Source: Minisyncoccota bacterium (GTDB taxonomy: Bacteria > Patescibacteriota > Minisyncoccia > Phycocordibacterales > UBA9973). From it: a DNA stretch of 64,000 nt. The stretch covers positions 4,996 through 68,995 of the forward strand of contig JBAYHR010000004.1 in NCBI GenBank assembly GCA_041666045.1, written 5' to 3'. Shown piece after piece: positions 20,690 through 57,335 of the stretch. Under the pieces are notes generated by a model. The model was not told the origin of the DNA. It was given only the letters and a program-made list of their open reading frames with translations, and ran no database searches. A program made the translations under genes and the position numbers. Each line of letters opens with the position of its first letter. Within the stretch, counting starts at the first letter, position 1.

Positions 20690-21745
20690 TTAAAAATTAA
20701 AAATTGGAGGTAAAATATTTATTACAACCAATGCATTAATAAGATTAAAAATTGCAAATAATATTACGACTAATCCGGCTGTCTTAAAGAAAATTCCAGA
20801 CTTTGAACTTTTTTGAATACTGAATGAACTGAAAGAAAGAAGCGCAAGTACTGGGAATGTTCCTAATGCAAATGATAACATAGTGAATGCTCCTTGTGAA
20901 AAATTACCAGTGGAAAGTGTAAAGATCTGCATTGATTGAGTAAAACCACAAGGTAAGAAAAAAGTGGCAACACCCACTAACGCTGGAGTAAGCGTATGAT
21001 TTAGTTTTGAAACACCCATAGCATGCTTGGAAATAAATTTTGGCATTCCAGGTTGAAGTTTTTTTGCCCAATGAAAAATATCAAGCAAATTAATTCCTAA
21101 AATTAACATCACTATCGCAATAATAAAACCTAATATAAATGTCCCAATTGAGCCAAGTTGAAAAGCAGATCCAATAGCGCCAATCACTCCTCCTAAAATA
21201 AAGAAAGAAACTAGTCTACTAATATGGAACATCGCATGTGGTTTTATTTTGCCTGCCCCGTAGGAAGTACTCTTTCCTTCGGGGTCTCCTTCGCGCGCAA
21301 ATGTCGCAGACATAGAAAGCACAAGTCCTCCTACTACAGCCATACAAGAAGAAAGCGATGCAATAATTCCTATAATAAAAGCCGTACCATAAGAAATATT
21401 ATCTGTCGCAATTAAATTTACTAATCCAATTTTTTGTAAAAAAACATAAAACACTACAAAAAAAATCGTTATAGGTATAGCAATTTTAAATTCACTCCAT
21501 TTCACTTCTTTTTTATGTTTATCTACTGCAAGAGTATAACCGTGTTTTACTAAAACTGTATTTAATTCTGTGGCAATATCTTCTGGTAATCTATCTCCGA
21601 AATCTCCAACTACTTCAACTAAATTAGAATTTAAGCTTGCTTTAACTTTTGAAATAAAAGGAAATTCTTTTAATTCACTTTCCGTCATTAATTCACATGA
21701 TTTACAATGCATTCCTTTAATATGAAATTTGTATGTTTTTTCCAT
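20690..21745 (-). CDS. HMA-domain fused to CcdA/DsbD-like polytopic membrane protein
   Basis: N-terminal GMHCKSC heavy-metal-associated motif; conserved Cys residues in separate TM helices (LSSCMAV, FLPCGF). Confidence 0.55.
   Translation of the reverse strand: MEKTYKFHIKGMHCKSCELMTESELKEFPFISKVKASLNSNLVEVVGDFGDRLPEDIATELNTVLVKHGYTLAVDKHKKEVKWSEFKIAIPITIFFVVFYVFLQKIGLVNLIATDNISYGTAFIIGIIASLSSCMAVVGGLVLSMSATFAREGDPEGKSTSYGAGKIKPHAMFHISRLVSFFILGGVIGAIGSAFQLGSIGTFILGFIIAIVMLILGINLLDIFHWAKKLQPGMPKFISKHAMGVSKLNHTLTPALVGVATFFLPCGFTQSMQIFTLSTGNFSQGAFTMLSFALGTFPVLALLSFSSFSIQKSSKSGIFFKTAGLVVILFAIFNLINALVVINILPPIFNF
21256..21284. repeat. GC-rich palindromic element, family B (CCCCGTAGGAAG...CTTCCTTCGGGG), in frame inside a CDS
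   Basis: Imperfect 11-bp inverted arms; near-identical copy at 57307-57335; encodes the loop peptide DPEGKSTSYGAG in the CcdA-like protein. Confidence 0.55.
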
Positions 21746-21750
21746 AAATT

Positions 21751-24084
21751 TTATAATTTCTTTGCCTTAATTCTTAATGAATTTGAAACGACCGATACAC
21801 TAGATAATGCCATGGCCATCCCTGCAAAAATTGGATTAAGTAGCCAACCAAATATTGGATAAAAAATCCCTGTTGCAAGTGGAATACCTATAACGTTGTA
21901 GAAAAATGCCCAAAAAAGATTCTGTCTTATTCCACGCATAGTAATTTTAGACAATTTTATAGCTTTAGCAAGTTTTGAAATGTCTCCGTATAAAAGCGTA
22001 ATTCCTGCAGATTCTATCGCTACATCTGTGCCTGTGCCCATTGCTATACCTACATCAGCTTGTGCAAGCGCTGGAGCATCATTTACGCCATCTCCAGCCA
22101 TAGCGACAATCTTACCTTCTGCTTGTAAAGACTTAATAGTATCTAATTTATCTTCTGGCATTACCTCGGCTAATACTTCATCAATGCCAACTTGTTTTGC
22201 AATATATTCTGCTGTTTGTTTATTATCTCCTGTAAGCATTATAATTTTAACTCCAAGCTTGTGAAGTTCAGCAACTGCCTGCATTGATTCTTTTTTTATA
22301 GAATCTGCAATCATAATAAAACCAAGAACTTTTTCCTTCGTCATTAAAACAACTGGCGTCTTTCCTTCCAATGTAAATTTATCTAATTGCGCTGTATCAA
22401 AAGAAATTTTTAAATCATTTATCAATCCAACACTACCAATAAAATATTCTGTATTATTTATTAATCCTTTTAACCCTCTTCCTTTTATGCTTTCAAAATT
22501 GGAAACTTCTTTTAGTTGAATTTTCTTTTCTTTAGAATAATTTAATATTGCATGAGCAATCGGATGTTCTGATTTATTTTCCAAAGACGCAAGAATAGAA
22601 ATCTGATCTACATCTAAATTTTGTATATCAATAAGTTCTGGTTTACCTTTTGTTATTGTTCCTGTTTTATCTACTACTACAACATTTACCTTATGAAGTT
22701 TTTCCAATGTTGCAGCGTCTTTTATTAAAATTCCTTCTTTTGCTCCTTTACCAACTCCCACAATAATAGCAGTTGGTGTAGCAAGTCCAAGCGCACAAGG
22801 ACAAGCTATCACAAGAACACTAACAAACGAAACAAGACCTAAAGACAAAGCGCTAGATAAGCCAAGCGTGCTTGAACCAAGAAATATCCACAAACCTAAT
22901 GACAAAAATGAAATAACTAAAACAATCGGTACAAAAATTCCTGAAATTTTATCCGCTAATGCTTGAATCGGTGCTTTACTACCTTGCGCTTCTTCAACCA
23001 TTTTTATTATATGTGCAAGCAAAGTCTCAAATCCTACTTTCGTAGCTTTAAAATTAAATGACCCGCTAGTATTTATCGTCCCTGCGGAAACTGTATCATT
23101 TATTTCTTTATGAACTGGCATAGGCTCTCCAGTTATCATTGATTCATCTATATACGAACTCCCTTCCACTACTACTCCATCGACAGCTATCTTAGACCCT
23201 GGTTTAACGACAATAATATCTCCGTGTACAACTTCATTTACAGAAATTTCAACTTCTTGTCCACCTCTTACAACCAAAGCTGTCTTTGCTTGCAAATTTG
23301 AAAGTTGTTCTATAGCATCTCCTGTTTTTAATTTTGATTTAGCTTCTAAATATTTTCCTAAAGTTATAAAAGCAATGACGATAATAGTAATATCAAAATA
23401 AGTTTGATCTACATTTAAAAAATCCTGAAGTTGCGTAGAAAAAAAGGTAATTATCATACTGTATAAGTATGCGACTGAAGTTCCTATTCCTATCAACGTA
23501 TCCATATTTGCTCTACCATAACGCAAAAATCTATACACCCCTAAAAGATATGGCTTACCTACAAAGAACAACATATATGTAGCCATAACTGGCAACATAT
23601 AAACAAAAAGTTTTTTAATTAAAATAGATGGCTCAGATACTAATTCATATTTCATTAAAATATCCCAAACCATTACAAAAAGACTAATTATTGCAAGTGG
23701 TATTGCAGACATTACTTTTAATTTCATACTATTTATTTCAGCAAGTTTATCTTTTTTATTTTGACCTATTCCTGTATGCGCCTTATGTTCATCTTCACTC
23801 ATCCCCATCCCGTTAGAGGCAGAGGGTCGCTGCGAGCCCTCGCGGCCTCTAACGGGACCCATACTCTCTGCAGTCTCAGTAATTAAAGAATACCCTAAGT
23901 GTTCTATGTTTTTAGAAAGATTCTCCACATTAATTTTATTTTCATCAAAAGATAATTTTGCAGATTCATTCCCATAATTCACTTCAGCCGAAATTACTCC
24001 ATCTATTTTCTTAAATGTCTTTTCTATTATTCCTGCGCATGAAGCACAATGCATTCCTTTTATTTTGTAAATATTTTTTATCAT
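21751..24084 (-). CDS. copA: Copper-translocating P1B-type ATPase CopA
   Basis: N-terminal HMA GMHCASCAG; CPC motif; DKTGT; GDGVNDAP; 777 aa. Confidence 0.9.
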   Translation of the reverse strand: MIKNIYKIKGMHCASCAGIIEKTFKKIDGVISAEVNYGNESAKLSFDENKINVENLSKNIEHLGYSLITETAESMGPVRGREGSQRPSASNGMGMSEDEHKAHTGIGQNKKDKLAEINSMKLKVMSAIPLAIISLFVMVWDILMKYELVSEPSILIKKLFVYMLPVMATYMLFFVGKPYLLGVYRFLRYGRANMDTLIGIGTSVAYLYSMIITFFSTQLQDFLNVDQTYFDITIIVIAFITLGKYLEAKSKLKTGDAIEQLSNLQAKTALVVRGGQEVEISVNEVVHGDIIVVKPGSKIAVDGVVVEGSSYIDESMITGEPMPVHKEINDTVSAGTINTSGSFNFKATKVGFETLLAHIIKMVEEAQGSKAPIQALADKISGIFVPIVLVISFLSLGLWIFLGSSTLGLSSALSLGLVSFVSVLVIACPCALGLATPTAIIVGVGKGAKEGILIKDAATLEKLHKVNVVVVDKTGTITKGKPELIDIQNLDVDQISILASLENKSEHPIAHAILNYSKEKKIQLKEVSNFESIKGRGLKGLINNTEYFIGSVGLINDLKISFDTAQLDKFTLEGKTPVVLMTKEKVLGFIMIADSIKKESMQAVAELHKLGVKIIMLTGDNKQTAEYIAKQVGIDEVLAEVMPEDKLDTIKSLQAEGKIVAMAGDGVNDAPALAQADVGIAMGTGTDVAIESAGITLLYGDISKLAKAIKLSKITMRGIRQNLFWAFFYNVIGIPLATGIFYPIFGWLLNPIFAGMAMALSSVSVVSNSLRIKAKKL
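23809..23856. mobile_element. 48-bp GC-rich palindromic mini-element inserted in frame in copA (CCCGTTAGAGGC...GCCTCTAACGGG)
   Basis: About 70% GC in a 30% GC gene; 12-bp terminal inverted repeat related to the MITE family TIR; flanked by CCCCAT/ACCCAT (ATGGGK on the coding strand); encodes PVRGREGSQRPSASNG in the HMA-TM1 linker. Confidence 0.6.
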
Positions 24085-24085
24085 T

Positions 24086-24349
24086 TTATTTTCTCTTAAG
24101 CTGATAAACTTTTAATATTTCTTTTGTGGCTTTAGCTGTTTGCCCTTTTTTAATTTGATTAATTAAACAATGCCCCAAATGTCCTTCCATAAGCATATCT
24201 TCAATATTTGAAAGACCTTGCTTAACAGCAGAAGTTTGAGTAATAACATCTATGCAATATTTGTCATTTTCTATCATATTCAAAAGACCTCTCACCTGCC
24301 CTTCTATTATTTTTAATCTATGCGCAATTTTTTGTTTATTATTTTGCAT
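24086..24349 (-). CDS. csoR: CsoR family copper-sensing transcriptional repressor
   Basis: 87 aa; RLKIIEGQVRGL, YCIDVITQ and HLGHC (Cys-His-Cys ligands) of CsoR/RcnR. Confidence 0.8.
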   Translation of the reverse strand: MQNNKQKIAHRLKIIEGQVRGLLNMIENDKYCIDVITQTSAVKQGLSNIEDMLMEGHLGHCLINQIKKGQTAKATKEILKVYQLKRK

Positions 24350-24358
24350 ACGACAAGT

Positions 24359-24437
24359 ATATACCCCCTAGGGGGTATATGTCAAGCATTTTGTGGAAAA
24401 CTATTATATTAAGTATACGGAGGGTAGCCCTCCATAT
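24359..24437 (-). promoter_or_regulatory. CsoR-type operators upstream of csoR-copA
   Basis: Perfect 22-bp palindrome ATATACCCCCTAGGGGGTATAT (24359-24380) and second imperfect palindrome ATACGGAGGGTAGCCCTCCATAT (24415-24437); both are ATACCC-N-GGGTAT type as in known CsoR boxes. Confidence 0.6.
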
Positions 24438-24449
24438 CAAATGACTATA

Positions 24450-24483
24450 AAAAAAATCCTGAGATAAGTCTCAGGATTTTTTA
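24450..24483 (-). terminator. Rho-independent terminator
   Basis: atcctgaga / tctcaggat 9-bp stem flanked by A6 and T5. Confidence 0.7.
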
Positions 24484-25047
24484 TTAAATTTTTTCCAATT
24501 TAGTAAAAATACTTTTACCATTATTTTTTTGAATAACTAAATCAAATCTACTCAATAATAAAGGAAAAAATATTGCTACCAATAACAACACATAACCAAC
24601 ATTGTTATTGTTTACCAAAAAACAAAAACCAATTCCAGTAATTATTGCCGTTGTTAATATGAATAAAAATGTCTTCCAAAATGATAAACTATGATTATAA
24701 ACAACAGTAGTTGCAACTATACACATAAATACAACTGTAGCTAAAACTGTAACTATAACTGCAATAATAAAATAACTAGAAATAATAATACAAATACTAA
24801 CATAAGCAGCTATAATAAACGCGACAATAGTAGCAGTAATAAATGTAAAATAATCATCATCATAATCAATTACAGCAATAACAAAAGAAATAACAGAAAA
24901 AACAACAGCAATGGCAATAATAATGGCAACGGTGGCAACTTTTGAATCATTTGTGATATTAAAAGTTATCACATAGATACACATAAGCACCAATAATACC
25001 ACAACCATACTTAAGGCTAATTTAAAAATCTTTAAATTTAGTTTCAT
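24484..25047 (-). CDS. Hypothetical polytopic membrane protein
   Basis: Five to six TM helices; ORF only. Confidence 0.4.
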   Translation of the reverse strand: MKLNLKIFKLALSMVVVLLVLMCIYVITFNITNDSKVATVAIIIAIAVVFSVISFVIAVIDYDDDYFTFITATIVAFIIAAYVSICIIISSYFIIAVIVTVLATVVFMCIVATTVVYNHSLSFWKTFLFILTTAIITGIGFCFLVNNNNVGYVLLLVAIFFPLLLSRFDLVIQKNNGKSIFTKLEKI

Positions 25048-25233
25048 TTTAAAATCTCCTATATATTAAGTTAAACAATTATTTCAAAAAACTTTATCTA
25101 ACAAAGAATATCACACTACACTATATTTGTCAATACAACATAAAGTGAATTCAACATTGAAGTGCAACACTTAAGAGTTCAATATAAAAACATATAATCT
25201 AGCTTACTAGGCAAGACCTAGTAAGTCTATAAA

Positions 25234-25767: not shown

Positions 25768-25793
25768 AATATTTTTAAATTATTAATAAAAAA

Positions 25794-26924: not shown

Positions 26925-26950
26925 TAATATGAAGTATAACAGAAAAATAA

Positions 26951-26980
26951 AAATTTGATAAATTTGATAAATTTGATAAA
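26951..26980. repeat. Tandem repeat (AATTTGATA) x3.3
   Basis: Direct reading; lies just upstream of tRNA-Gln. Confidence 0.7.
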
Positions 26981-27009
26981 CATCAAATTTTATATTATTG
27001 TATCTATAT

Positions 27010-28879: not shown

Positions 28880-28902
28880 ATTATTGATTTTAATTGTGAA
28901 TA

Positions 28903-36140: not shown

Positions 36141-36169
36141 TCACAAATTCCTTTCTGCTTCAATAAACA
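36141..36169 (-). repeat. 29-bp direct repeat TCACAAATTCCTTTCTGCTTCAATAAACA (copy at RT 3' end)
   Basis: Identical to 39904-39932 at the prfB 3' end; encodes FIEAERNL plus TGA on the minus strand. Confidence 0.85.
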
Positions 36170-37163
36170 TACTAAGTTTATACCCATTCCCATGCCCCAG
36201 CATCCCCAAATACGAAGCAATGGTATTAGGTTTTTGATTATTCTTTAAATTCCTAAACATCCTTTTCTTTGTGCTATTTCGTAATACTCTGTGTTTAGGA
36301 AAATGTACCCAGCCTAAGAAATCCACACCTGAATAAATAGTTTTAATAAAAACTTTATCTGGATGCATAGTTAATTTTAATTCATTTTCTAAAAACTCTT
36401 TCATTTGTTCTAAAATATTTTCCAAATAATTTTTGTCTTGCGATAATATAACAAAATCATCAGCGTATCTTATATAATATTTCACTTTCAATTTATGTTT
36501 TACAAATTGATCAAATTCATTCATATAGATATTTACAAGGAGTTGAGAAGTTAAATTACCCAAAGGCAAACCTTTTGAAAGTGACACAAACTCTGCCATG
36601 GCAGAGTTTGTGTCACTTGTATAAAAACTATCTATAATATTATCTAAAAGCCAAATGATATCTTTATCTTTTATAAATTTTACTAAAATACTTTTTAAAA
36701 TATTATGATCAATACTCGCAAAGAATTTTTTAATATCACATTTTAAAACCCAACAGGTTTTTGAATTATTTTTACTAACTTTGCGAAAATAATCCCTAAA
36801 CTTATTCATTCCCTTATGAGTACCTTTCCATTTACGGCAAGAATATGAATCACTGATAAATTTTGAATCAAAGAAAAAATACATTTTTTGATAAAGAGCG
36901 TGATGCAATATCCTGTCACAAACAATGGCTTTATGTATATCACGAGGTTTTGGATCAGAAATTTTAAAAGCATAATATCCTGAATGTTTATAATTTTTTG
37001 TTTTTAAATCATTGTGAAGTTTTAATAAATTTTCCATTAAATTTCTTTGCCAAATTTGAACATCTTTTTTATTTGATTTTTCGCTCCTAAAATTTTTCCA
37101 CGCCAAAAGTAAATTTTCCAAAGATATGATATCATTGTAACTATGAATAAAAGTTTTTATCAT
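36141..37163 (-). CDS. Diversity-generating retroelement reverse transcriptase
   Basis: RT motifs including YIRYADDFVIL (YxDD) and the DGR-specific LGxxxSQ (LPLGNLTSQ); 340 aa; the last 8 codons are shared with prfB. Confidence 0.85.
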   Translation of the reverse strand: MIKTFIHSYNDIISLENLLLAWKNFRSEKSNKKDVQIWQRNLMENLLKLHNDLKTKNYKHSGYYAFKISDPKPRDIHKAIVCDRILHHALYQKMYFFFDSKFISDSYSCRKWKGTHKGMNKFRDYFRKVSKNNSKTCWVLKCDIKKFFASIDHNILKSILVKFIKDKDIIWLLDNIIDSFYTSDTNSAMAEFVSLSKGLPLGNLTSQLLVNIYMNEFDQFVKHKLKVKYYIRYADDFVILSQDKNYLENILEQMKEFLENELKLTMHPDKVFIKTIYSGVDFLGWVHFPKHRVLRNSTKKRMFRNLKNNQKPNTIASYLGMLGHGNGYKLSMFIEAERNL

Positions 37164-37563: not shown

Positions 37564-37696
37564 TTGCGAGAGAGAAAAACAAAGCGATTGTTGCCACTCC
37601 ACTTGTTGTCTAAATTCCCATTATTGTTGTTAAGCCACAACCCATCGTTATTGCATTCCACATTGAAAATCCTAGGATTGCCATCGCGATCAGTAT
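37564..37696 (-). repeat. DGR template repeat (TR)
   Basis: 133-bp direct repeat of the VR; differs from the VR only at positions that are A on the sense (minus) strand. Confidence 0.85.
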
Positions 37697-38005: not shown

Positions 38006-39859
38006 CTAATTCTTGCGAGAGAGAAAAACAAAGCGATAGTTGCCACTCCACCTGTCGCCTAAATTCCCATCATAGCTGTCAAGCCACAACCCATCGCCAT
38101 AGCATTCCACACCGAAAATCCTAGGACCGCCATCGCGATCAGCAATAGAATCCATCGCAATTCTTAACCATTCTCCCATAAGTTGATCTTTATAATTAAG
38201 TCTAAGCTCTGGACCAACTTGTGGTGGACATAATTCTAAACCAAGTTTTTTTGCTTTATTGTATATTTCTTTTAAAGTAGCTCCATTTGGAAAACCGAGT
38301 TGTTCTATTGAAAATGAAACTAGATTAATTTTTTCTTTTTGTTTTAATGGCTCTATTTTATTTAACATATCTTGAGCATAAGAATATATTTTCATTCCTT
38401 GTACTTTTATTTCTTTTGTATATTCTTCTGATGTTTTAGTTGTAAGTTCTATATTTTTTCTAAATATTTTCTTTTCAGGAAATGATTCATATAAATATTC
38501 AATATTTTTTGGAATCTTTTTTGCAATTTCCGGATTCCATTCTCCTATATATGCTTTAGTATTTTCGTTTATTTCATCTTTATTATATGCAATCTGTTCT
38601 GAATTGCATTCAAAAATAATTGATGCATCTTCTTTGATATTTCTTTGTTTTCTTAATTCTAAAATTCGTGGATCTTTTTCATAACCAAAACTTGAAATAG
38701 AATCATTCATCTCATATAGAAAAACTAAATCTTGTTTGGTAAATTGTTCATTCTTTTCTTGTTTTTTAACAAGCTCAGTCACTTTTTTCATATCATTTGA
38801 TTTTTTATCAAATTTTTCTCCACCCGGCAAAGAATGATATTTTTCTTGTGCAGTATCTATCAAAACAGGTTCTAATTCTTGTCGGTGATTCACTCCACGC
38901 ACTTCTGCTATTTCATCTCCTTGCATTCTAATTGCAATTCTGGGCTCAGAATAATTACCAGCTGTTCCTTTAGTGTAATAAACATAAAAATCACCACCTT
39001 GCAGATGACTTGGCGCGCTTCCTTCGGCTGTACACCAGCCTGTGCCTTTGCCACGAAGTGCATTTTCTAAAATATGATAATCAGAACCTTGATCATATTT
39101 TACCCATTCACCTTTTAATGATTCACGATTTAATGTTCCAGCTGTTTCTATTTGAGCAAAAGTGTAAAGTTTTACAAAATCTTTCTTTTCTATCATCTTT
39201 TCTAAATCAGCTCTTTTTTGTTTTTGATCTTCCCCTGTGAATTCTTGGCTACCGATACCAGTAGTTAGCATTCTGTAAACAAAACCAAGCGCTTCGGAAT
39301 TTATTTCTGGAAATGGAGCAATTGTATAATCTGTGCGTTTACTATACTCTCCTTTTTCTTTATTAAGAGTTCCCATTTTAGACAAATTGCGAACAATAAA
39401 ATACCGAAACCAAGTCGGATATTCTGCATCGTTTTGTTTTAAGTAATCAAGCCAGCCATTTAATGATTTTACTTGAATTTCTCTTTTTTCTTTAGCAAGA
39501 TTTTCATAACCTTTTATTAGCTCATCATTATCTTCCAACTTCATTATTTCATTGCTTCTGCCTTGTTCTATTGCAATTCTTTTTTCTGATTCATAAAGAC
39601 CAACAGCGATTTTTGTAAGTGTATCTTCATCTTTAGTGTCTATGGCTAAATCTTTTATTATTTTATTTTTTAGTAATTCCCAACCTCGCTCGTCTTCCAC
39701 TATTTTATCAAGACGATCTAAATACGCTTCTATTCTTTCATCACGAGAATGCGGAGCAAATTTTCTTTCTGGATCTTTTTTAGCTTTTTCTACTGCTCGA
39801 ACAACCGGTTTTGAACCCGGTAAATCTGAATATTTTTGTTCAAGAAAATTCTTTTTCAT
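38006..39859 (-). CDS. DGR target protein with C-terminal variable (CLec/FGE-like) region
   Basis: 617 aa, no signal peptide; C-terminus ...GVECYGDGLWLDSYDGNLGDRWSGNYRFVFLSRKN is encoded by the VR. Confidence 0.8.
   Translation of the reverse strand: MKKNFLEQKYSDLPGSKPVVRAVEKAKKDPERKFAPHSRDERIEAYLDRLDKIVEDERGWELLKNKIIKDLAIDTKDEDTLTKIAVGLYESEKRIAIEQGRSNEIMKLEDNDELIKGYENLAKEKREIQVKSLNGWLDYLKQNDAEYPTWFRYFIVRNLSKMGTLNKEKGEYSKRTDYTIAPFPEINSEALGFVYRMLTTGIGSQEFTGEDQKQKRADLEKMIEKKDFVKLYTFAQIETAGTLNRESLKGEWVKYDQGSDYHILENALRGKGTGWCTAEGSAPSHLQGGDFYVYYTKGTAGNYSEPRIAIRMQGDEIAEVRGVNHRQELEPVLIDTAQEKYHSLPGGEKFDKKSNDMKKVTELVKKQEKNEQFTKQDLVFLYEMNDSISSFGYEKDPRILELRKQRNIKEDASIIFECNSEQIAYNKDEINENTKAYIGEWNPEIAKKIPKNIEYLYESFPEKKIFRKNIELTTKTSEEYTKEIKVQGMKIYSYAQDMLNKIEPLKQKEKINLVSFSIEQLGFPNGATLKEIYNKAKKLGLELCPPQVGPELRLNYKDQLMGEWLRIAMDSIADRDGGPRIFGVECYGDGLWLDSYDGNLGDRWSGNYRFVFLSRKN
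38013..38145 (-). repeat. DGR variable repeat (VR) at the 3' end of the target gene
   Basis: About 17 substitutions relative to the TR, all at TR adenines (13 A->G, 4 A->T in coding sense); the 3'-terminal ~30 nt are identical (IMH-like). Confidence 0.85.
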
Positions 39860-43237: not shown

Positions 43238-43275
43238 AAAGTGATTTTTATAACTCTTGCCAAAGTTTGATTTAG

Positions 43276-43310
43276 CGAAATCATGTCGCGCAACCGTCCT
43301 TATAGCGCGA
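43276..43310. repeat. GC-rich repeat, family A copy 1 (TTTGATTTAGCGAAATCATGTCGCGCAACCGTCC)
   Basis: Near-identical copy 71 bp downstream and a third copy at 20641. Confidence 0.6.
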
Positions 43311-43346
43311 CCTGTTCGTCAACATCTAGTCCAGTTGTCTGATTTT

Positions 43347-43381
43347 GCGAAATCATGCCGCGCAATCGTCCATCAAAGCGT
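43347..43381. repeat. GC-rich repeat, family A copy 2
   Basis: About 90% identical to copy 1. Confidence 0.6.
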
Positions 43382-48054: not shown

Positions 48055-48387
48055 TTATGCAACATTAAACTTCTCAAAAACCTGAAATACGTCCACTGTT
48101 TTCTTCCTAATATCAATCTCGTCGTCATATACGATAAGCATTTCAAGCGAAGAATGTCGGCTAAACTTTCTTACGTCTCTGACATCAAGTTTTTTGAGCA
48201 AGGCAGTAATGAAGAAGTGGCGAAATCCGTGAACTCCTTTTTCAATCCCAACTTCTTTACACAAAGAACCTAGCTGGCGTTTTATTGTCATTGTGGTTAT
48301 CCTTTCACTTTTTCTATTTCCCATACTTTTAAACAAAGCTCCACTTCCGACTTTATTAGTTTTTATGTATTCTCTCAAAACATTCAC
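48055..48387 (-). pseudogene. Truncated tyrosine recombinase/integrase (C-terminal catalytic fragment only)
   Basis: HGFRHFFITALL (box II HxxR) and SRHSSLEMLIVY (catalytic Tyr region); the usual N-terminal ~250 aa are absent. Confidence 0.6.
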
Positions 48388-49757: not shown

Positions 49758-49797
49758 ATATTAATTATAACATATTGTAAAATATGCCTAATCTTGC

Positions 49798-49871
49798 GCG
49801 ACCGACCGGATTTGAACCGGCAACCTCCCGCGTGACAGGCGGGTGCTCTAACCAGTTGAGCTACGATCGCA
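49798..49871 (-). tRNA. tRNA-Asp (anticodon GTC)
   Basis: Manual fold: acceptor GCGATCG/CGGTCGC, anticodon stem CCCGC/GCGGG with loop CTGTCAC, T-arm GCCGG-TTCAAAT-CCGGT. Confidence 0.8.
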
Positions 49872-50063
49872 TTATTAATACATAAACAGATATTTTATTT
49901 TACCACACAATCGTTCCGCCTAGGCGGGTGCTCGCTATAGTCTGGTCTGAGTTGAGCTACGATCGCATTATTAATACATAAACAGATATTTTATTTTACC
50001 ACACAATCGTTCCGCCTAGGCGGGTGCTCGCTATAGTCTGGTCTGAGTTGAGCTACGATCGCA
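49872..50063 (-). repeat. Tandem duplication, 2 x 96 bp, each unit carrying a tRNA-Asp 5'-fragment (acceptor plus D-arm) fused to unrelated sequence
   Basis: Units 49872-49967 and 49968-50063 are identical; each ends with GCGATCGTAGCTCAAC (the tRNA-Asp 5' end) but lacks a foldable 3' half. Confidence 0.8.
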
Positions 50064-50350: not shown

Positions 50351-50360
50351 CAATAATAAA

Positions 50361-50993
50361 TTAAATAAATCCAAATTCACGGAAAACTTGCTCATATAAA
50401 GCAACTACCCTTTTTGCTTCCCTACTTGTAAGTTCAAATTGTAAACCTTCATGCGCTATTCTGTTTCTTACAATATGGGCTTCCCAAGCATCATCAACAC
50501 TGCGAAACCTATCTCTATCAATCATTTTTAATTTTTCTCCCAGATTCTCTCCCTTATATCCAAGTTGATCCAGCAACGCTTCAAGCATAGAATCTGCTTC
50601 TATTATTGCAACTTTCCAATCAGCTGAATTTTCTGAAAAAAGATGATCTAATACTCCTTCCCATCTTTTATTTTTTTGTCCTTCTCCTTTATTCATCAAT
50701 GCCTTTTCTTTTTCAGCTTGCTTTTGTGCGTATAATGCAATTTGTTGATGTAAAAATTCTTTTTCTTTTTTTCTTATTTCAAATATGCGAATAGCGCAAT
50801 AAATAATTATAATAAGAAAAAATAATGCAAGAAAAAAAAGTATAAATTTTAAAATACCTACAAATTCAGCATTAAAAAGATTACGAAAAAAATTAAGAAT
50901 TTGATTGAATAAATATTCCAAATTCAAAAAAGTTGGATCAAAAAGTTTATTTTGAGTAGCTGTATTTAAATTTAATGATTGTGATAAATCCAT
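50361..50993 (-). CDS. Membrane-anchored HEPN-like (DUF4145-type) protein
   Basis: N-terminal TM; C-terminal helical domain with RNRIAHE (Rx4H HEPN motif). Confidence 0.45.
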   Translation of the reverse strand: MDLSQSLNLNTATQNKLFDPTFLNLEYLFNQILNFFRNLFNAEFVGILKFILFFLALFFLIIIIYCAIRIFEIRKKEKEFLHQQIALYAQKQAEKEKALMNKGEGQKNKRWEGVLDHLFSENSADWKVAIIEADSMLEALLDQLGYKGENLGEKLKMIDRDRFRSVDDAWEAHIVRNRIAHEGLQFELTSREAKRVVALYEQVFREFGFI

Positions 50994-51111
50994 CCCGTTA
51001 GAAATAGGAAATCTTTAGATTTCCGTAGTTAATTTATTAATAATAATTTCTATGCACTTCATAATTTATATATCCCACGAAACACAACTTAACTTTTTGA
51101 TTTCTAACGGG
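50994..51111. mobile_element. MITE-like element, copy 1 (118 bp; TIR CCCGTTAGAAAT; TSD ATCCAT)
   Basis: Terminal inverted repeats, internal palindrome GGAAATCTTTAGATTTCC, flanked by a 6-bp direct repeat; sits between the gatA stop and the downstream gene start. Confidence 0.75.
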
Positions 51112-51118
51112 ATCCATA

Positions 51119-52516
51119 TTATATATTTTCTCTTAAATCCTTTTCAATAGCAAATAATGACTCATCAGAAAATGCTGGACCAGTAAATTGTATCCCAAAT
51201 GGCAAACCATTTTCTGAAAAACCAGAAGGTATTGAAATTGAAGGAATCCCAGCAATATTTGCTGGTACAGTAAAAATATCAGATAAATACATTTGCAAAG
51301 GATCTTTCTTTTCTCCAAATTTAAAAGCTGATGTAGGAGTGGTAGGTGTAACAACAAAATCAACTTCTTTAAAAATATTTTTAAATTCTTCTTCTATGGC
51401 ATAACGAACTTTCCAAGCTTTATTATAATAAGCATCATAATATCCATGAGATAAAACGTAAGTTCCCAAGATTATTCTTCTTCTAGTTTCCGCTCCAAAG
51501 CCAACTGACCTGCTTTTTTTATATGTTTCAAATAAAGTATCTCCATCTTTTCGCAATCCATATCGCACTCCATCTAATCTGGATAAATTGGTAGAAACTT
51601 CTGCAGGCATAATAATATAATATACTGCCAAAGAATATTTTGAATATGGCAAATCTATATCAATTATTTCATAACCTTTATCTTTTAATTTTTGAATTGA
51701 TTCTTCAAAATTTTGTAAAACTTCTTTATCTACTCCTTCTTTTAACCAATCACGCGGAATGCCAATTTTTTTGCCTCTTGATTTAGAAATCAAACCAATA
51801 CTAGTAGAATCCATTTCATCTTTTCCAGAGATAACATTAAAAATTATTTGCGAATCTTCTGAATTCTTTGCAAATGGACCTATTTGATCTAAAGAAGAAG
51901 CCATAGCCATAACTCCAGAACGCGAAACAATGCCATAAGTAGGTTTCATTCCAACTATTCCGCAAAAACTTGCTGGTTGACGTATAGAACCTCCTGTATC
52001 AGATCCTAAAGCGCCAAGAGCCATACCAGATGCCACAGCAACAGCAGAACCGCCAGAAGACCCGCCGGGTACGCGTGAAATATCAAATGGATTTTTAACA
52101 GAACCAAAAGCAGAATTTTCAGTTGAACTTCCCATTGCAAATTCATCCATATTCGTCCTACCTATTAAAACTGCGCCAGATTCTTTTAATTTTTTAATTA
52201 CAAAAGCGTCATAGCTCGCAGTATAATTTTCTAACATTTTAGAACCTGCGCTTACTTTTTTTCCAGTTATTAAAATATTATCTTTGATTGCAATTGGTAT
52301 ACCTGTTAAATTGGTTCCCTTGCCAGATTTTATAATTTCATCCGCTTTTTTTGCTTGATCTAAAGCATCAGAAAAAACTTCAAGAAATGCATTTAATTCT
52401 TTATTTTTTTCTTCTATATTTTTTAAACAAGCTGAGACTAATTCTACAGAAGTTAATTCTCCAGAATTCATCATTTCCCCTGCTTTTTTAATAGTTAAAT
52501 TTTTTACATCAAGCAT
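51119..52516 (-). CDS. gatA: Glutamyl/aspartyl-tRNA amidotransferase subunit A
   Basis: Amidase signature GGSSGGSAVAVASG; 465 aa. Confidence 0.95.
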   Translation of the reverse strand: MLDVKNLTIKKAGEMMNSGELTSVELVSACLKNIEEKNKELNAFLEVFSDALDQAKKADEIIKSGKGTNLTGIPIAIKDNILITGKKVSAGSKMLENYTASYDAFVIKKLKESGAVLIGRTNMDEFAMGSSTENSAFGSVKNPFDISRVPGGSSGGSAVAVASGMALGALGSDTGGSIRQPASFCGIVGMKPTYGIVSRSGVMAMASSLDQIGPFAKNSEDSQIIFNVISGKDEMDSTSIGLISKSRGKKIGIPRDWLKEGVDKEVLQNFEESIQKLKDKGYEIIDIDLPYSKYSLAVYYIIMPAEVSTNLSRLDGVRYGLRKDGDTLFETYKKSRSVGFGAETRRRIILGTYVLSHGYYDAYYNKAWKVRYAIEEEFKNIFKEVDFVVTPTTPTSAFKFGEKKDPLQMYLSDIFTVPANIAGIPSISIPSGFSENGLPFGIQFTGPAFSDESLFAIEKDLRENI

Positions 52517-52526
52517 ATAAATAAAA

Positions 52527-52799
52527 TTACATAATCTTTTTTACTTTAATAAAACCATCCTGCGAATCTGGAAATTGATTAATTATTAATTCACTAGAAA
52601 AAACCGAAGAAATCGGCACATCTTCTCGCCAAACATTTTTATTTTCATATTCTATATTTACATCTTTTACCTCAATAGATTCTATTTGCTTCACATAACC
52701 TAAAATACCATCTAAATCTTTTAATAAAGTTTCCTTTTCTGTATCTGAAATCTCTATTTTAGCAAGCTCTGCAAGCTTTTCTACATCTTTAATTTCCAT
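52527..52799 (-). CDS. gatC: Glutamyl/aspartyl-tRNA amidotransferase subunit C
   Basis: 90 aa; position directly upstream of gatA. Confidence 0.75.
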   Translation of the reverse strand: MEIKDVEKLAELAKIEISDTEKETLLKDLDGILGYVKQIESIEVKDVNIEYENKNVWREDVPISSVFSSELIINQFPDSQDGFIKVKKIM

Positions 52800-52916
52800 C
52801 CCGTTTAGAAACAGGTCGCGGTCTATTTCAAAAAATAAACTACTCCTGTCTTACTTATTTAAATAATAATACAACACAATACCCCCTTAAAAACTGCGAC
52901 CGCGGTTTCTAACGGG
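52800..52916. mobile_element. MITE-like element, copy 2 (117 bp; same TIR; TSD TCCAT)
   Basis: CCCGTTTAGAAAC...GTTTCTAACGGG with extended GC-rich inverted arms AGGTCGCGGT/ACCGCGACC; lies between the htpX stop and the gatC start. Confidence 0.75.
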
Positions 52917-52943
52917 ATCCATTATTAGATTATAGCAAAAATT

Positions 52944-53822
52944 CTATCTTCCTAAAAGAGCCTTTACTCTAGCTTCCATTGGTGGATGAGTTGAAAATAA
53001 ATTAGATATTTTTTTAACTCCAAAAGGATTAGAAATAAACAAATGCGCTGTCGCTGTATTTGCACTTGCCATAGGTCGAGAATAATTTGAAATTTTTGTA
53101 AGAGCATTCGCTAAACCTTCTGGATAACGAGTAAGTAGTGCGCCTGATGCATCTGCTAAAAATTCTCTTTTGCGAGAAATTGCCAATTGAATAAGTACAG
53201 CAAAAATCGGCGCAAGAATAGACAAAACTATACCTACAACTAACATTAATCCGCCACCTCTATCATTATCTCTATTTCCACCACCAAAAAACATTGAACG
53301 CAAAAACATATCTGCAACAATAGAAATAAAACCAACTAAAACCACCACAACTGTCGAAAGTAAAATATCTCTATTTCCTATGTGAGAAAGTTCGTGGGAA
53401 ATAACTCCTTCTAATTCATTTTTGTTTAATATCTGCAAAAGCCCCGTGGTCACAGCCACAACTGCATGCTCTTTATTTCTTCCAGTTGCAAAAGCATTTG
53501 GAGAAACATCATTTATGATACAAAGTTTTGGCATAGGCAAACCTGCTGTGATAGAAAGATTTTCAACAATATTCCATAATTCTGGATTTTCTTCTTTTTT
53601 TATTTGTCGTGCCTTATTAAGTTTTAATGCAATTTTATCAGAATACCAATAACTCATCACATTCATCCCAATACTAAAAATTACAAAGAAATATAAAATA
53701 TTTGGATTTCTATAATATTGAGAAAAGAAAAATCCAATACTAATAACTATCACAAAAAACGCGCTCATCAAAAGCCAAGTCTTTGTAACATTTCTTGATT
53801 GATGTGTATATAACGTCGCCAT
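52944..53822 (-). CDS. htpX: Zinc metalloprotease HtpX (M48)
   Basis: HELSHI zinc motif; four TM helices. Confidence 0.85.
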   Translation of the reverse strand: MATLYTHQSRNVTKTWLLMSAFFVIVISIGFFFSQYYRNPNILYFFVIFSIGMNVMSYWYSDKIALKLNKARQIKKEENPELWNIVENLSITAGLPMPKLCIINDVSPNAFATGRNKEHAVVAVTTGLLQILNKNELEGVISHELSHIGNRDILLSTVVVVLVGFISIVADMFLRSMFFGGGNRDNDRGGGLMLVVGIVLSILAPIFAVLIQLAISRKREFLADASGALLTRYPEGLANALTKISNYSRPMASANTATAHLFISNPFGVKKISNLFSTHPPMEARVKALLGR

Positions 53823-53826
53823 TTAT

Positions 53827-54393
53827 TTATTGTATAACAACAGGAATCAAGATAGATTTATCATTTTCAGGAAGACCTGAAGCATTATCGTTATGTAATT
53901 CAATATAACCAGGACCAGCAACTAAACCAGTGAAATCTAAAGTTGTATTAAATGTCACAGGATCTATCGTCATCCAAGCGCTTGTAGCTGTACCATAAGT
54001 AGTTCTTAACACACTTTTACTAGAATCAAGAATTCTCACAATAATATTTCCTTCAAAAAAGTATCCTCCTCTTACTGAACCATTAGCTTGCACTACTCCA
54101 GTAACGATTGAACCTACTGGTATTGAAAAAGAAACTAAATCACTTTTATTTCCCAAAACACTTACATTTGCAATAGGTTTAGTAGAAGTACTTGGTTTAT
54201 TAGGAGTATTAGTATTTACAGTGTCTTGATTAATATTTACACTATCATCTGTAATAATTACATTATCTTCTGCTGTAGGAATTGAAACATCATTTACTAC
54301 TGGTTCTGTAGTTTTTTTATTTAAAAAATAAACAGTTCCTCCTAATGCCACCACTACCACTATCACTAACAATAATTTTCCAAAATTTGTCAT
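53827..54393 (-). CDS. Hypothetical membrane-anchored extracellular protein
   Basis: N-terminal TM; Thr/Asn-rich linker. Confidence 0.35.
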   Translation of the reverse strand: MTNFGKLLLVIVVVVALGGTVYFLNKKTTEPVVNDVSIPTAEDNVIITDDSVNINQDTVNTNTPNKPSTSTKPIANVSVLGNKSDLVSFSIPVGSIVTGVVQANGSVRGGYFFEGNIIVRILDSSKSVLRTTYGTATSAWMTIDPVTFNTTLDFTGLVAGPGYIELHNDNASGLPENDKSILIPVVIQ

Positions 54394-54416
54394 AATATTT
54401 TTTAAGTTATTAATAA

Positions 54417-54968
54417 TTAAAATTTAACTTCAACTGGATTTTGAGCAACATCATTATCTGGCAGATCAAAGAATTCCATTTTAGAAAACTTAAATGTATT
54501 AGCTATCACATTTGATGGGAAACTTTGGATACTAATATTTAGATCACGAACATTTGTATTATAAAATCTTCGCGCAGCTTGAATCTTATTTTCTGTATCA
54601 GAAAGTTCTGATTGTAAACCTAAAAAGTTTTGATTTGCCTTTAAATCTGGATAAGCTTCTGCTATAGCAAAAATTGATTTCAAAGCGCCTGTAAGCATAT
54701 TTTCAGCTTCTGCGTGACCTTTTGTAGGCCCTTGCGCTCCCATAGCCATAGATCTTGCTTTAGTAACATTCTCAAATGCAGAAGATTCATGAGTCGCATA
54801 ACCCTTCACAGCATTTACTAAATTAGGAATCAAATCATATCTTCTTTTTAATTGAACTTCAATGTCAGCCCAAGCTTCTTGTGCTCTATTTCTAAGAGAA
54901 ATAAAACGATTAAACGCATAAACCACCCATAAAATCACTACCCCTAAAATTATCCAAAGATACATCAT
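54417..54968 (-). CDS. lemA: LemA family protein
   Basis: N-terminal TM; LemA-like RRYDLIPNLV motif. Confidence 0.75.
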   Translation of the reverse strand: MMYLWIILGVVILWVVYAFNRFISLRNRAQEAWADIEVQLKRRYDLIPNLVNAVKGYATHESSAFENVTKARSMAMGAQGPTKGHAEAENMLTGALKSIFAIAEAYPDLKANQNFLGLQSELSDTENKIQAARRFYNTNVRDLNISIQSFPSNVIANTFKFSKMEFFDLPDNDVAQNPVEVKF

Positions 54969-55013
54969 ATATTTATTAAAATTAAGTTAATAATAACTAT
55001 TAAAAAATTGAAA

Positions 55014-55910
55014 TTATTTTTTCTTTGCTTGCCACTCTTCCATTAAAACTAAAAGAGGCGAAGCCAAGAAGATAGATGAATATGTTCCAAAGAACATTCC
55101 AGCTGTAAGCATCAAAGCAAAATATTTTGTAGATGTAGGACCAAAGAAAACGAGAGATAACAATACTAATATAACAGTTAAAGATGTACAGATAGATCGC
55201 ACGTATGATTGTTCTAAACTTTTACCAACTGTTTCATTAAAAGTAGTTTCAACTCTGTTTTTTAAATTTTCTCTTATTCTGTCAAAAATAACAATAGTAT
55301 CAGAAACTGAAAGTCCTAAGATAGTAAGTACCGCCACAACAAACAAAGTATCTAACTCTGCTCCATAGTAATGTGAAAGCATTGAAAAAAGTCCAACAGG
55401 AATAATAACATCATGCAATAGAGATATAACAGCCATGAAACCATATTTCCAAGAAGAAACAGGCTTAGAAACTTTTCTGAAAGCATAAGCGATGAAAAAT
55501 ATAATAGCGAGTGATACTAATATGATAGCTATGATAGCTTTCTTTGTAAGTTCACGTCCAACTGAAGGTCCGATAGAATTAAAACTCTTTTCTTCTAAAG
55601 CGCTCTTCCCATCTTGAGAAAGTGTCTTCAAAATTAATCCATGTTCAGCTTCATTTAAATCACGAGACTTTACAATATAACCCATATCTCCTGTAGGTTG
55701 TAATAAAATGGAACCAAAATTTAAAGCTTCTAGTGAAGCGCTTAAGTCAGTTTGTAATGGTCTTGCATCCTTATAAACTACTTCAGTCAAAGCTCCTCCT
55801 TTAAAATCAATACCAACTTTTAATCCAAATACAGAAATTGAAACAATTGAAAGTATGACTAGTACAATTGAGATTCCGATAAATATTTTTTTGTTTTTTA
55901 TTATAAACAT
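55014..55910 (-). CDS. secF: Protein translocase subunit SecF
   Basis: Six-TM SecF fold; position downstream of secD. Confidence 0.85.
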   Translation of the reverse strand: MFIIKNKKIFIGISIVLVILSIVSISVFGLKVGIDFKGGALTEVVYKDARPLQTDLSASLEALNFGSILLQPTGDMGYIVKSRDLNEAEHGLILKTLSQDGKSALEEKSFNSIGPSVGRELTKKAIIAIILVSLAIIFFIAYAFRKVSKPVSSWKYGFMAVISLLHDVIIPVGLFSMLSHYYGAELDTLFVVAVLTILGLSVSDTIVIFDRIRENLKNRVETTFNETVGKSLEQSYVRSICTSLTVILVLLSLVFFGPTSTKYFALMLTAGMFFGTYSSIFLASPLLVLMEEWQAKKK

Positions 55911-55927
55911 TGATTTTATTTTACTTA

Positions 55928-57289
55928 TTATTTTGATAAGCCTGAACTAAATAAAAATCTTGCTAACTTACTTTCTCCAATAAAACTAATTGCTGAAAGG
56001 AAAATTCTTGTGATAGTAATAGCAGAAAGCATTGATACCAATACACCCATACCAAGAGTCAAAGCAAAACCTTTAATCAGTGATGTACCAAACCAGAAAA
56101 GGATAATAGCAGTTATGATACTTGAGGTATTTGAATCACGGATAGAAAACCAAGCGCGAGAGAATCCAGCAGAAACAGAATCTGCAATGGTTCTTCCAGA
56201 ACGTAATTCTTCTTTTACACGTTCAAAAATAAGAACGTTTGCATCCACTGCAATACCTATTGAAATAATAAAACCGGCAATGCCTGCAGCAGTCAGAGTA
56301 ACTGGTAAAAGTTTGAATAAAGTTAACATAATAACAATATAAATACATAAAGAAAGTACTGCTATTAATCCTGGTAATCTGTACCAAAGTATTAAAAACA
56401 ATGCTATAAATAAAAATCCAATTATTGCAGCTTTTACTCCAGAATTCATGGCATTATCTCCTAAACTTGCTCCGATAGTTTGTTTTGAAAGTAATGTTAT
56501 AGGTACAGGAAGAGCGCCAGAGTTTAACCTGCCAACTAATTGTTTTGCTTCTGTCGGTGTAAAATTTCCTGAAATTTGAGCAGTACCGCCTGTTATTTCT
56601 TCACGAACAACTGGAGTAGAAATTGGTGCCCCATCTAGATATATTGCAACAATTTTTCCAACATTATCTTTTGTTATTTGCGCAAACAATTCTGTTCCCT
56701 TATCATCAAATTGTAAACCTACTTTTGGTTCACGAGTATTTTGATCAAATTCTAAAGTTGCTTTCTTTAAATATCTACCAGTTAATTCTGTATCAACAAA
56801 TTGTTGACTTACATCTACAGTTGCTTTTCCATCTTTATCTACAGTTAATTGTTGAGGTTGATCTTTTGGTGCTTCAATTTTAAATTCCAAAAGTGGAGTC
56901 TGTCCGATCATAGCTGTAGCTTTTTCAACATCAGTAATACCTGGAAGATCAACAATAAGCTTCTCTTCCCCTCCTGAAACGAAACCTCCTTCTTGAATCT
57001 GCACTACTGGTTCAGAAACTCCAAAAAGATTAACTCTGCGTTCTATAACATCACGAAGAGCGTTCATTGAATTTGAAACTTCACCAGCTTTTATTGCTGA
57101 AACATCTGCTTTGTAAATCAAATGACTTCCCCCAGAAAGGTCTAATCCCAAACGAAATGGAGTCTTCTTAAAAAATGAACTTTGATTTTCAAAATTTGAA
57201 TTTAATTTAGGTTCAGATTTAAATACAAAAAAAGCAATACCAATTCCTAATAACAATATAATAATAGCTAATATCCTTTTTTTAATCAT
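55928..57289 (-). CDS. secD: Protein translocase subunit SecD
   Basis: SecD periplasmic and TM domains; start set at the internal Met (MIKKRILAII) because the upstream ORF extension is encoded by a family B repeat element. Confidence 0.85.
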   Translation of the reverse strand: MIKKRILAIIILLLGIGIAFFVFKSEPKLNSNFENQSSFFKKTPFRLGLDLSGGSHLIYKADVSAIKAGEVSNSMNALRDVIERRVNLFGVSEPVVQIQEGGFVSGGEEKLIVDLPGITDVEKATAMIGQTPLLEFKIEAPKDQPQQLTVDKDGKATVDVSQQFVDTELTGRYLKKATLEFDQNTREPKVGLQFDDKGTELFAQITKDNVGKIVAIYLDGAPISTPVVREEITGGTAQISGNFTPTEAKQLVGRLNSGALPVPITLLSKQTIGASLGDNAMNSGVKAAIIGFLFIALFLILWYRLPGLIAVLSLCIYIVIMLTLFKLLPVTLTAAGIAGFIISIGIAVDANVLIFERVKEELRSGRTIADSVSAGFSRAWFSIRDSNTSSIITAIILFWFGTSLIKGFALTLGMGVLVSMLSAITITRIFLSAISFIGESKLARFLFSSGLSK

Positions 57290-57306
57290 ATTAATTCTTT
57301 TCCATG

Positions 57307-57335
57307 CCCCGTAGGAAGCTATGCTTTCCTTCGGG
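57307..57335. repeat. GC-rich palindromic element, family B copy 2 (CCCCGTAGGAAGCTATGCTTTCCTTCGGG) in the secD leader
   Basis: About 85% identical to 21256-21284. Confidence 0.55.

Follow-up and report, generated by a model that had tools for sequence, protein, structure and literature searches.

A probable selfish GC-rich hairpin repeat carried within genes of Patescibacteria, often in frame

Short palindromic repeats have been described in several systems. Repetitive extragenic palindromes (REPs) are defined by a GTAG or CGTC tag (Di Nocera et al. 2013, PMC3733652). The Rickettsia palindromic element (RPE) RPE-1 is ~150 bp long (range about 100-150 bp) and is restricted to Rickettsia (PMC10969869), and a 42-nt GC cluster of yeast mitochondria undergoes exchange by recombination, merging and shuffling (PMC4478555). 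In literature searches with most subscription journals outside their scope, we met no account of elements of this kind from the Candidate Phyla Radiation (CPR) or Patescibacteria. Here we describe a hairpin element of 33-36 nt, a GC-rich imperfect palindrome that is present three times in a 64-kb stretch (the window) of a Paceibacterota (Parcubacteria) contig, in which the GC content is ~30% throughout. The element is found in dozens of unrelated genes, where it is present in some alleles and absent from others at otherwise orthologous sites. Next to it, the filled and the empty alleles also have a short stretch of flanking sequence that differs in ancestry. We think it probable that this is a non-autonomous selfish hairpin repeat of Patescibacteria, comparable with the REPs, the RPEs or the GC clusters.

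The copies in the window are listed below. The element is described on the minus strand, which is the sense strand of all the genes involved.

21252-21284, minus strand: copy 1, 33 nt, CCCCGAAGGAAAG-AGTA-CTTCCTACGGGG-CAGG, read in frame as PEGKSTSYGAG; 57 bits with the family covariance model
57303-57336, minus strand: copy 2, 34 nt (not a multiple of three), with a 5-nt loop CAUAG and a tail CAUG; 50.3 bits
63498-63531, minus strand: copy 3, 34 nt, intergenic, UCCCGAACCAAAGCCAAGCUUGGUACGGAACAGG, with the GG/CC step of the stem flipped to CC/GG

A preliminary description of the sequence had reported two similar GC-rich palindromic sites with inverted arms, and both are found at those positions as copies 1 and 2. 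In 64 kb the 12-mer arm CCCCGTAGGAAG occurs only at 21256 and 57307 (0.03 expected from shuffling), and the arm CTTTCCTTCGGG only at 21272 and 57324 (0.09 expected). The differences between the two copies are confined to the loop (TACT vs CTATG) and a few bases at the edges. Each folds into an interrupted hairpin of 10-12 bp, with a predicted RNA energy of −15.4 kcal/mol for copy 1 (z = −2.9) and −14.4 kcal/mol for copy 2 (z = −3.2). The limits of both copies were set by comparison of filled and empty alleles, with a boundary ambiguity of 1 nt for copy 1. Copy 3 was newly found using the covariance model (match at 63497-63532 on the minus strand, 26.6 bits, E = 4e-5, filters off), and is not spanned by any long open reading frame (ORF). 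Its CC/GG variant is also present in four other loci (L001, L033, L083 and L094).

Outside the window, more than 120 further copies of this DNA lie in unrelated genes of other Patescibacteria, which supports the earlier proposal of a dispersed palindromic family able to sit in frame. An exact-pattern scan for CCCGTAGGAAG-N3-7-CTTTCCTTCGGG, using one genome per species, gave at least 120 loci (L001-L120). Among the matches listed, these exact copies come from genomes labelled as Nomura-, Nealson-, Giovannoni- or Wolfebacteria, Paceibacterota or Minisyncoccia. Many loci titled 'uncultured Candidatus Saccharibacteria' (third-party annotation assemblies) look like Parcubacteria, and the Tgt DNA of L001 is 73% identical to a Nomurabacteria locus. 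The Saccharibacteria titles are probably mislabels, so the taxonomic breadth taken from record titles is overstated. The same pattern gave no copies in the viral contigs of IMG/VR.

The sense-strand consensus is CCCCGAAGGAAAG-loop-CTTCCTACGGGG-CAGG. It forms a hairpin of 12-14 pairs with one A·A mismatch, one bulged A, a loop of 3-7 nt and a 4-nt unpaired tail. Conservation covers the foot (CCCCG/CGGGG; (A)CCCCGA...UACGGGG), mismatch, bulge and CAGG tail. The inner stem, which covaries, and the loop are variable; in one subfamily the sense-strand loop is C(UUCG)G. Among the listed copies sequence similarity breaks off sharply at the edges of the element, the flanks outside being unrelated, and the preceding base is A in 68%. 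Of 122 listed copies, 74 end in GCAGG, 17 in GCAAG and 13 in GTAAA. A resemblance of CCTACGGGGCAGG to the 16S 341F site is presumably a chance partial match and was dropped.

The covariance model was built from 53 distinct copies. It detected 18 further diverged copies in 720 kb around the seed copies, and none in 277 kb of orthologous loci of related genomes that had been fetched for another reason. Given these frequencies and the three copies in 64 kb of the window, the abundance of the element is lineage-specific, which fits a proliferating repeat and not a universal signal. In the diverged copies the inner stem is swapped for other complementary sequences, with GG/CC changed to CC/GG or CG/CG, or with longer inner stems. 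When 47 distinct copies are aligned by fitting to the model, pairing is kept in 96% of cells and six of the 12 pairs have changed on both sides; none of 500 shuffles matches the observed values, and sliding the partner columns abolishes the signal. A scan of the window with Rfam at gathering thresholds found five tRNAs only, and no family matching the element. A reading of the hairpin as a terminator was rejected, as no T-run follows it on the sense strand, and the T-richness of the flank on the opposite strand is simply the complement of an A-rich coding strand.

Most of the copies are translated. Among the listed copies 74 of 123 (~60%) lie inside long ORFs, corresponding to 51 distinct host sites. 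The element is in the sense orientation at 49 of these sites and in a single frame at 37, giving the peptide [D/N]PEGKxxSYGAG, which is rich in Pro, Gly, Ser and Lys. An in-frame element adds ~11 amino acids, mostly inside essential genes; the hosts identified include Tgt, enolase, RuvB, UvrC, PNPase, PcrA/UvrD, UvrA, LigA, CopA and SecD, and CopA carries the element at two different sites. The suggestion that in-frame insertion is a general phenomenon of the source genome is correct as to generality. It is not special to that genome, being spread patchily over many Parcubacteria lineages. The palindromic elements of Rickettsia behave similarly, in that they lie in frame in a wide variety of housekeeping genes, within a genome that is small and AT-rich, encode a tolerated conserved peptide and have no known transposase (PMC10969869). 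They are unrelated in sequence to the present element, which is only 33-36 nt in length and occurs in many lineages of Parcubacteria. Repair genes are in excess among the hosts (UvrA, UvrC, PcrA, RuvB and LigA), and intragenic REPs have likewise been reported in repair genes (PMC3733652). This bias, common to the REPs and the present family, can now be tested in a second, unrelated phylum. The PcrA/UvrD of L060 and the enolase of L058 contain further short Gly/Ser/Arg/Pro-rich segments, e.g. LSQAGGPRVSAPRTRGDS and SLRQDSGQAR. These may be other GC-rich inserts that are translated, and several families may accumulate in the same genes.

The length of the element is related to its location. Genic forms are 33 or 36 nt, with 4- or 7-nt loops. 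By contrast, the 34-nt form with a 5-nt loop is intergenic in 20-21 of 23 cases, the exceptions being artefacts of ORF extension or compensated in the flanks. Since the coding copies keep lengths divisible by three, the element is translated and not spliced out. The distribution suggests that selection is filtering on both the length of the element and the peptide that it encodes. Copies downstream of genes show no preference of orientation (~10 sense and ~8 antisense), which suggests that the bias within genes arises from selection on the peptide and not from insertion. The recurrence of PEGKxxSYGAG might be taken to indicate an ordinary conserved protein segment, with the likeness of the DNA as a by-product of peptide conservation. 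That explanation is refuted. Copies lie in non-coding DNA, in other frames and in other orientations, codons are identical where synonymous change would be expected, and orthologues lack the segment. Neither is the family limited to the two copies first noticed, nor is the peptide common to orthologues.

Copy 1 provides the clearest comparison of filled and empty alleles. Its host gene is as follows.

20690-21745, minus strand: gene encoding a 351-aa membrane protein with HMA and DsbD_2 (CcdA/TauE-like) domains, from the ORF and Pfam

The product is identical to the protein P0001, in which Pfam identifies PF00403 and PF13386. P0001 comes from a 'Candidatus Paceibacterota' metagenome-assembled genome, and its relatives are proteins of Parcubacteria type (Zambryski-, Minisyncoccia). 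Copy 1 is read in frame as DPEGKSTSYGAG. The closest of 120 orthologues (P0002, 89% identity) has REGD|KLKP at this point without the 11 residues, while a distant orthologue (P0039, 70% identity) carries DPEGKNTSYGAG at the same position. The DNA of the closest orthologue, the empty allele L121, reads GAAGGGGA|CAAATTAAAA (CAAATT directly after the junction); the window adds exactly 33 bases, with no target duplication. Nearly all of the ~70 metagenomic orthologues that are readable at the site are empty, and the empty state is therefore ancestral. Some other orthologues have different inserts here, with a common CC... start and ...GG(G/A)CA(G/A)G end. The earlier placement of copy 1 within a loop of the membrane protein agrees with the read-through of the ORF and with an AlphaFold model in which the insert lies in a coil between helices comprising residues 119-152 and 169-194. 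As the confidence of that model is low (pLDDT 59), we have used it for secondary-structure context only. Copy 1 is thus predicted to add 11 residues to an inter-helix loop.

The P0039 gene is 69% identical to that of the window overall, yet 32 of 33 nucleotides are the same within the element. Such strong conservation relative to the flanks would be expected of a cis-acting RNA or DNA signal selected by the host, for example a stabiliser of the mRNA 5' end, or a site for an RNase, an RNA-binding protein or a DNA-binding protein. The conserved mismatch and bulge, the covarying stem, the sense orientation of 49 of the 51 coding sites and the subfamily with the C(UUCG)G loop on the sense strand would all suit this explanation, as would ~18 intergenic copies that are sense-oriented and lie 6-60 nt upstream of a start codon. 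We nevertheless consider it unlikely. Most orthologues of each host gene lack the element, there were no copies in the 277 kb from related genomes, and the host genes have no pathway or rule of position in common. Downstream copies have no preferred orientation, no Rfam family matches, and the link between length and coding or non-coding location is just what a translated passenger would show.

Copy 2 lies at the start of secD, where the following features are found.

55928-57289, minus strand: secD, the host locus of copy 2, 453 aa (Pfam SecD_1st, SecDF_P1_head and SecD_SecF_C; lengths of homologues)
57282-57302, minus strand: extra tract of ~21 nt (GAAAAGAATTAATATGATTAA), only in element-bearing secD alleles, carrying the present start at 57289-57287
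57291-57344, minus strand: putatively translated upstream ORF of 17 codons, MWNPEGKHSFLRGMEKN followed by a stop, starting at the ancestral secD ATG
57357-57385, minus strand: block resembling a promoter, TTGCAT-17 nt-TAGAAT, located ahead of the ancestral start and proposed from its conservation

The element ends 13 nt upstream of the actual secD start, the ATG at 57289-57287. It opens the reading frame back to 57394, which would give a protein of 488 aa, whereas nearly all the listed SecD homologues are ~450-469 aa, mostly exactly 453, and most of them start with MIKK or MWKK. A public gene call (P0121, in L212) is 488 aa and so 35 codons too long in that assembly. Because the element opens the upstream frame, this call is an annotation artefact. 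The preliminary description had copy 2 in the secD leader and recognised the artificial extension of the ORF. The latter stands, but the element interrupts the ancestral third codon of secD and brought a new start codon with it.

This is seen from the leaders of secD orthologues, which were chosen by protein similarity alone. L212 (95%) is filled, and L208, L209 and L210 (92, 89 and 88%) are empty. L211 (87%) is filled and has identical flanks with a different hairpin interior, i.e. a hybrid hairpin, and L057 (75%) is also filled. The more distant SecD genes of L111 and L037 have short leaders in which the element is absent. In the empty alleles secD starts at ATGTGGAAAAAAAGA (MWKKRIL), ~12 nt past the TTGCAT-17-TAGAAT block. 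The block is kept in seven of seven secD alleles compared; it was not reported by a consensus promoter scan. In the filled alleles the ancestral ATG is retained (57344-57342), followed by 8 nt, the 34-nt element and the ~21 nt of GAAAAGAATTAATATGATTAA that contain the present start, and alignment of filled with empty alleles places copy 2 in the ancestral third codon. The 17-codon ORF from the old ATG crosses the hairpin, and its stop codon precedes the new ATG by 1 nt; in L057 its stop and the secD start overlap as ATGA. From this arrangement we infer that translation of the upstream ORF and secD may be coupled. In the empty alleles L208-L210 the start lies only ~12 nt past TAGAAT with no Shine-Dalgarno-like sequence, which suggests that their secD mRNA is leaderless or near-leaderless.

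The sequences flanking the element are mosaic at both loci. At the CcdA-like gene nine of 12 consecutive informative sites match the distant filled allele in preference to its close empty counterpart (permutation p = 0.003; Fisher 7e-5). These sites begin 3 nt ahead of the element and run to 48 nt beyond it, and three of the eight downstream sites are of synonymous type on reading the codons. At secD the first 75 coding nucleotides are 76% identical to the close empty allele L208, vs 90% for nucleotides 76-300; the corresponding values for the filled L211 are 84% and 82%. Because the flanks are mosaic at both, these alleles appear to have been replaced by homologous recombination. Recurrent independent insertion, or precise excision, was set aside as a less likely source of the patchy distribution at orthologous sites since both loci tested are mosaic-flanked, an outcome not expected from either process. 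A comparison of co-conversion at Tgt (L001, L033 and L097) was uninformative, the three alleles being about equidistant.

In this respect the element resembles the palindromic GC clusters in the mitochondrial DNA of yeast (GC42; Wu and Hao 2015, PMC4478555) and the repetitive hairpins of sponge mitochondria (PMC2800124). Those are short GC-rich palindromes occurring sporadically in AT-rich genomes, with exchange by homologous recombination, merging and shuffling, constraint on sequence and putative target duplications (PMC4478555, PMC2800124). The swapped interiors at the secD and CcdA-like sites fit the shuffling process described for the GC cluster (PMC4478555). The mitochondrial repeats are however organellar, mostly non-coding and unrelated in sequence, whereas copies of the present element are mostly translated.

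Two kinds of insertion site are observed. Three filled/empty pairs (the CcdA-like gene and two CopA sites) show clean insertion of 33 nt after GA, without duplication. Elsewhere, 12 of 115 copies (~10%) are flanked by direct repeats that exceed the 99th percentile of inter-locus controls, where 1.2 were expected, and 22 of 115 exceed the 95th percentile (5.8 expected). The duplications are 9-29 nt long, and the upstream repeat mostly ends exactly at the element boundary. A frequent layout near gene starts is a 5' fragment of the gene, the element, a spacer and then the complete gene. It was found by eye from N-terminal motifs at uvrA, rpmB, gap, a gene for a zinc-ribbon protein and secD, and the same layout is present at tRNA-Lys (with a perfect 16-nt repeat) and tRNA-Glu. 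Either the target may at times be duplicated by insertion, or only duplicated targets may survive at essential 5' ends. Duplication by insertion is favoured because two in-frame examples (L090; L100 with L087) needed no rescue.

Duplications of variable length with a hairpin between the two repeats might instead be left by repair of a break or stalled fork, the copies being short fillers taken from another copy by template switching and not transposed. The hybrid hairpin at the same secD site in L211, and the CcdA-like site where interiors differ with the same foot and tail, would be consistent with such an origin. We regard it as quite improbable. At unrelated sites the element has the same, precisely defined ends, positions after RA are preferred as targets, and the conserved mismatch, bulge and tail point to recognition by a protein.

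By analogy, the element most likely works like a REP. Both are imperfect palindromes (20-40 nt for REPs, with stems of 6-13 bp) that have a short loop and carry on one side a tag of 4 unpaired nucleotides, with subfamilies related by complementary changes in the stem and occasional inverted pairs (PMC3733652). In-frame intragenic REPs are known in Opitutus terrae and as RPE-4 and RPE-6 of Rickettsia conorii, notably in uvrA, uvrD, a ligase gene and further genes for repair (PMC3733652). Taken with clean, duplication-free insertion at three sites and the copies in repair genes, this might suggest a true REP, mobilised by a REP-associated Y1/HUH tyrosine transposase (RAYT) encoded elsewhere in these genomes. 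We find that doubtful. The tag is CAGG (CCTG on the other strand) and not GTAG or CGTC; a GTAG is present, but it is paired within the stem. At 12-14 pairs the stem is longer, and it contains a bulge as well as the fixed A·A mismatch. Some 60% of copies lie within genes, vs a small minority of REPs, and Patescibacteria are not among the REP hosts named in the part of the survey cited (PMC3733652). The long flanking duplications of ~10% of copies are not made by Y1 transposition, and no RAYT was found in the window (71 of 74 ORFs scanned) or in the multi-copy locus L004, where the ORF translations between the three copies were read. As neither the tag nor the location is that of a REP and no RAYT was found in these sequences, we have not filed the element as a REP. 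At the locus L004 (QLUR01000061.1, 5.5 kb, 50% GC, labelled Bacillota) the three copies flank what appears, from the ORF translations, to be a restriction-modification island, with genes for two Dcm-like methylases and a Vsr-like endonuclease and a large unassigned ORF. It may be mis-binned or a transferred island.

Two further kinds of mobile element share some of these properties. Miniature inverted-repeat transposable elements such as Correia, RUP and ERIC (PMC10969869) are small and non-autonomous with inverted ends, and can fuse in frame with host ORFs. They are longer than 100 bp, derive from insertion sequences (IS) and generate target duplications of fixed length (PMC10969869), whereas duplication by the present element is absent at the three clean sites and variable (9-29 nt) elsewhere. 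In transposition of IS200/IS605 type (PATE-like) an imperfect hairpin is recognised as single-stranded DNA, and insertion takes place 3' of a short specific target, without duplication and in an orientation tied to the replication strand. The hairpin of our element and its clean insertions after RA fit this scheme; on the other side, no tetranucleotide target is conserved, and some duplications occur. Any replication-strand bias of the element is inseparable from gene orientation.

We therefore return to a non-autonomous selfish repeat as the probable explanation. New sites would arise by insertion of a copy, preferring A-rich sequence after RA, mostly cleanly and sometimes with target duplication of 9-29 nt. 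A putative enzyme acting in trans would recognise the folded foot and the tail, probably on single-stranded DNA as for REP/RAYT or IS200/IS605. Selection would remove all but the harmless insertions, namely those in surface loops, those in frame, and those rescued by a regenerated gene 5' end. Established insertions would then pass between related genomes via homologous recombination, with interiors reshuffled among family members. At secD, copy 2 would have split the start region, leaving a hairpin-containing upstream ORF coupled to the new start.

A number of points weigh against this explanation. No recent transposition event has been observed directly, and recombination accounts better than repeated insertion for the patchiness at orthologous sites. 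A mobilising enzyme was not found, as the Pfam scan of 71 of the 74 window ORFs revealed no Y1/HUH transposase; it did reveal a probable reverse transcriptase of a diversity-generating retroelement (DGR), a partial integrase and a sub-threshold HNH match, none of them linked to the element. Conservation far beyond the surroundings (32/33 vs 69%) could reflect selection for function rather than recent mobility, and the sense copies 6-60 nt upstream of starts could have a role in expression. Moreover the exact-pattern scan biases the sample toward conserved copies, and the covariation figures lean toward the model to which the alignment was fitted.

More tentatively, the element may be Parcubacteria-wide and integrated by an unrecognised enzyme that reads the foot plus CAGG. 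Staggered integration with variable duplications would regenerate the 5' ends of genes and tRNAs, and the element would spread by uptake and homologous recombination, co-converting its flanks. If true, an element without genes would have a homing-like lifestyle, and would continually supply start codons, upstream ORFs and new loops to genomes that are among the smallest in bacteria. On the selfish-repeat explanation, the minimal, streamlined genomes of the ultra-small Patescibacteria would tolerate and transmit parasitic DNA even in essential genes. Part of the numerous short insertions by which their proteins differ between lineages would then have a concrete mechanism. The element would also serve as a natural marker of recombination between lineages, and its conserved non-palindromic features provide a search image for the mobilising enzyme.

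The window contains two candidate relatives of the family.

12366-12399, minus strand: possible diverged relative, CCCAGTACTAGAGCAAAGCTCAGTACGGGACAAG, intergenic, with the same foot, a CAAG tail and another inner stem
60367-60403, plus strand: possible superfamily relative, CCCCGCCTGCATCGCTATGCGAAGCATTGCGGGCAGG, inside folD (60074-60964, minus strand) and antisense to it

The first gives a weak match to the covariance model (E = 2.8) and was picked out by a regular expression for foot and tail together with its folding (−14.9 kcal/mol). It adjoins a small hairpin at 12320-12344 on the plus strand with a similar kind of tail. The second is a 37-nt GC-rich palindrome with a CAGG tail, selected in the same way (−18.1 kcal/mol). 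In alignment with homologues in the PDB, FolD has ~10 extra residues here around the conserved (C)HS motif.

Other repeats are present in the window. A second family with termini CCCGTTAGA...TCTAACGGG comprises an in-frame insert in copA (23802-23866), two copies of ~140 nt (50988-51129 and 59959-60099; 81-94% identical) and a partial copy (52882-52920). Ends of the form CTAACGGGG(CAGG) adjoin or lie inside copies of the hairpin element in L054, L085, L023 and L211, and for this reason the two families may be related. The likeness of the termini of this second family to integron attC boxes was dropped as what we take to be a chance partial match.

At 49854-50045 there are two identical tandem units of 96 nt, each containing the ~17 nt with which the adjacent tRNA (49797-49870, minus strand) begins, together with a GC-rich hairpin CCGCCTAGGCGG. 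The layout of gene 5' fragment, hairpin and complete gene is that of the family studied here, and a partial phage-integrase ORF (48058-48387) lies nearby.

The probable DGR (36144-37163, minus strand; 37564-37693; 38013-38142; 38006-39859, minus strand) comprises a reverse-transcriptase ORF (RVT_1, E = 1e-24) and a pair of 130-nt repeats with 88% identity, one of which is at the 3' end of a 617-aa ORF without a Pfam match. Within the reverse-transcriptase ORF a perfect palindrome with 18-bp arms, AAGTGACACAAACTCTGCCATGGCAGAGTTTGTGTCACTT (36579-36618), is read through in frame. Finally, a third family of short repeats (TTGATTTTRCGAAATCAYGTCGCGCAACC...) with GC-rich palindromic cores is found at 20641-20681, 43267-43307 and 43339-43379, all of them intergenic.

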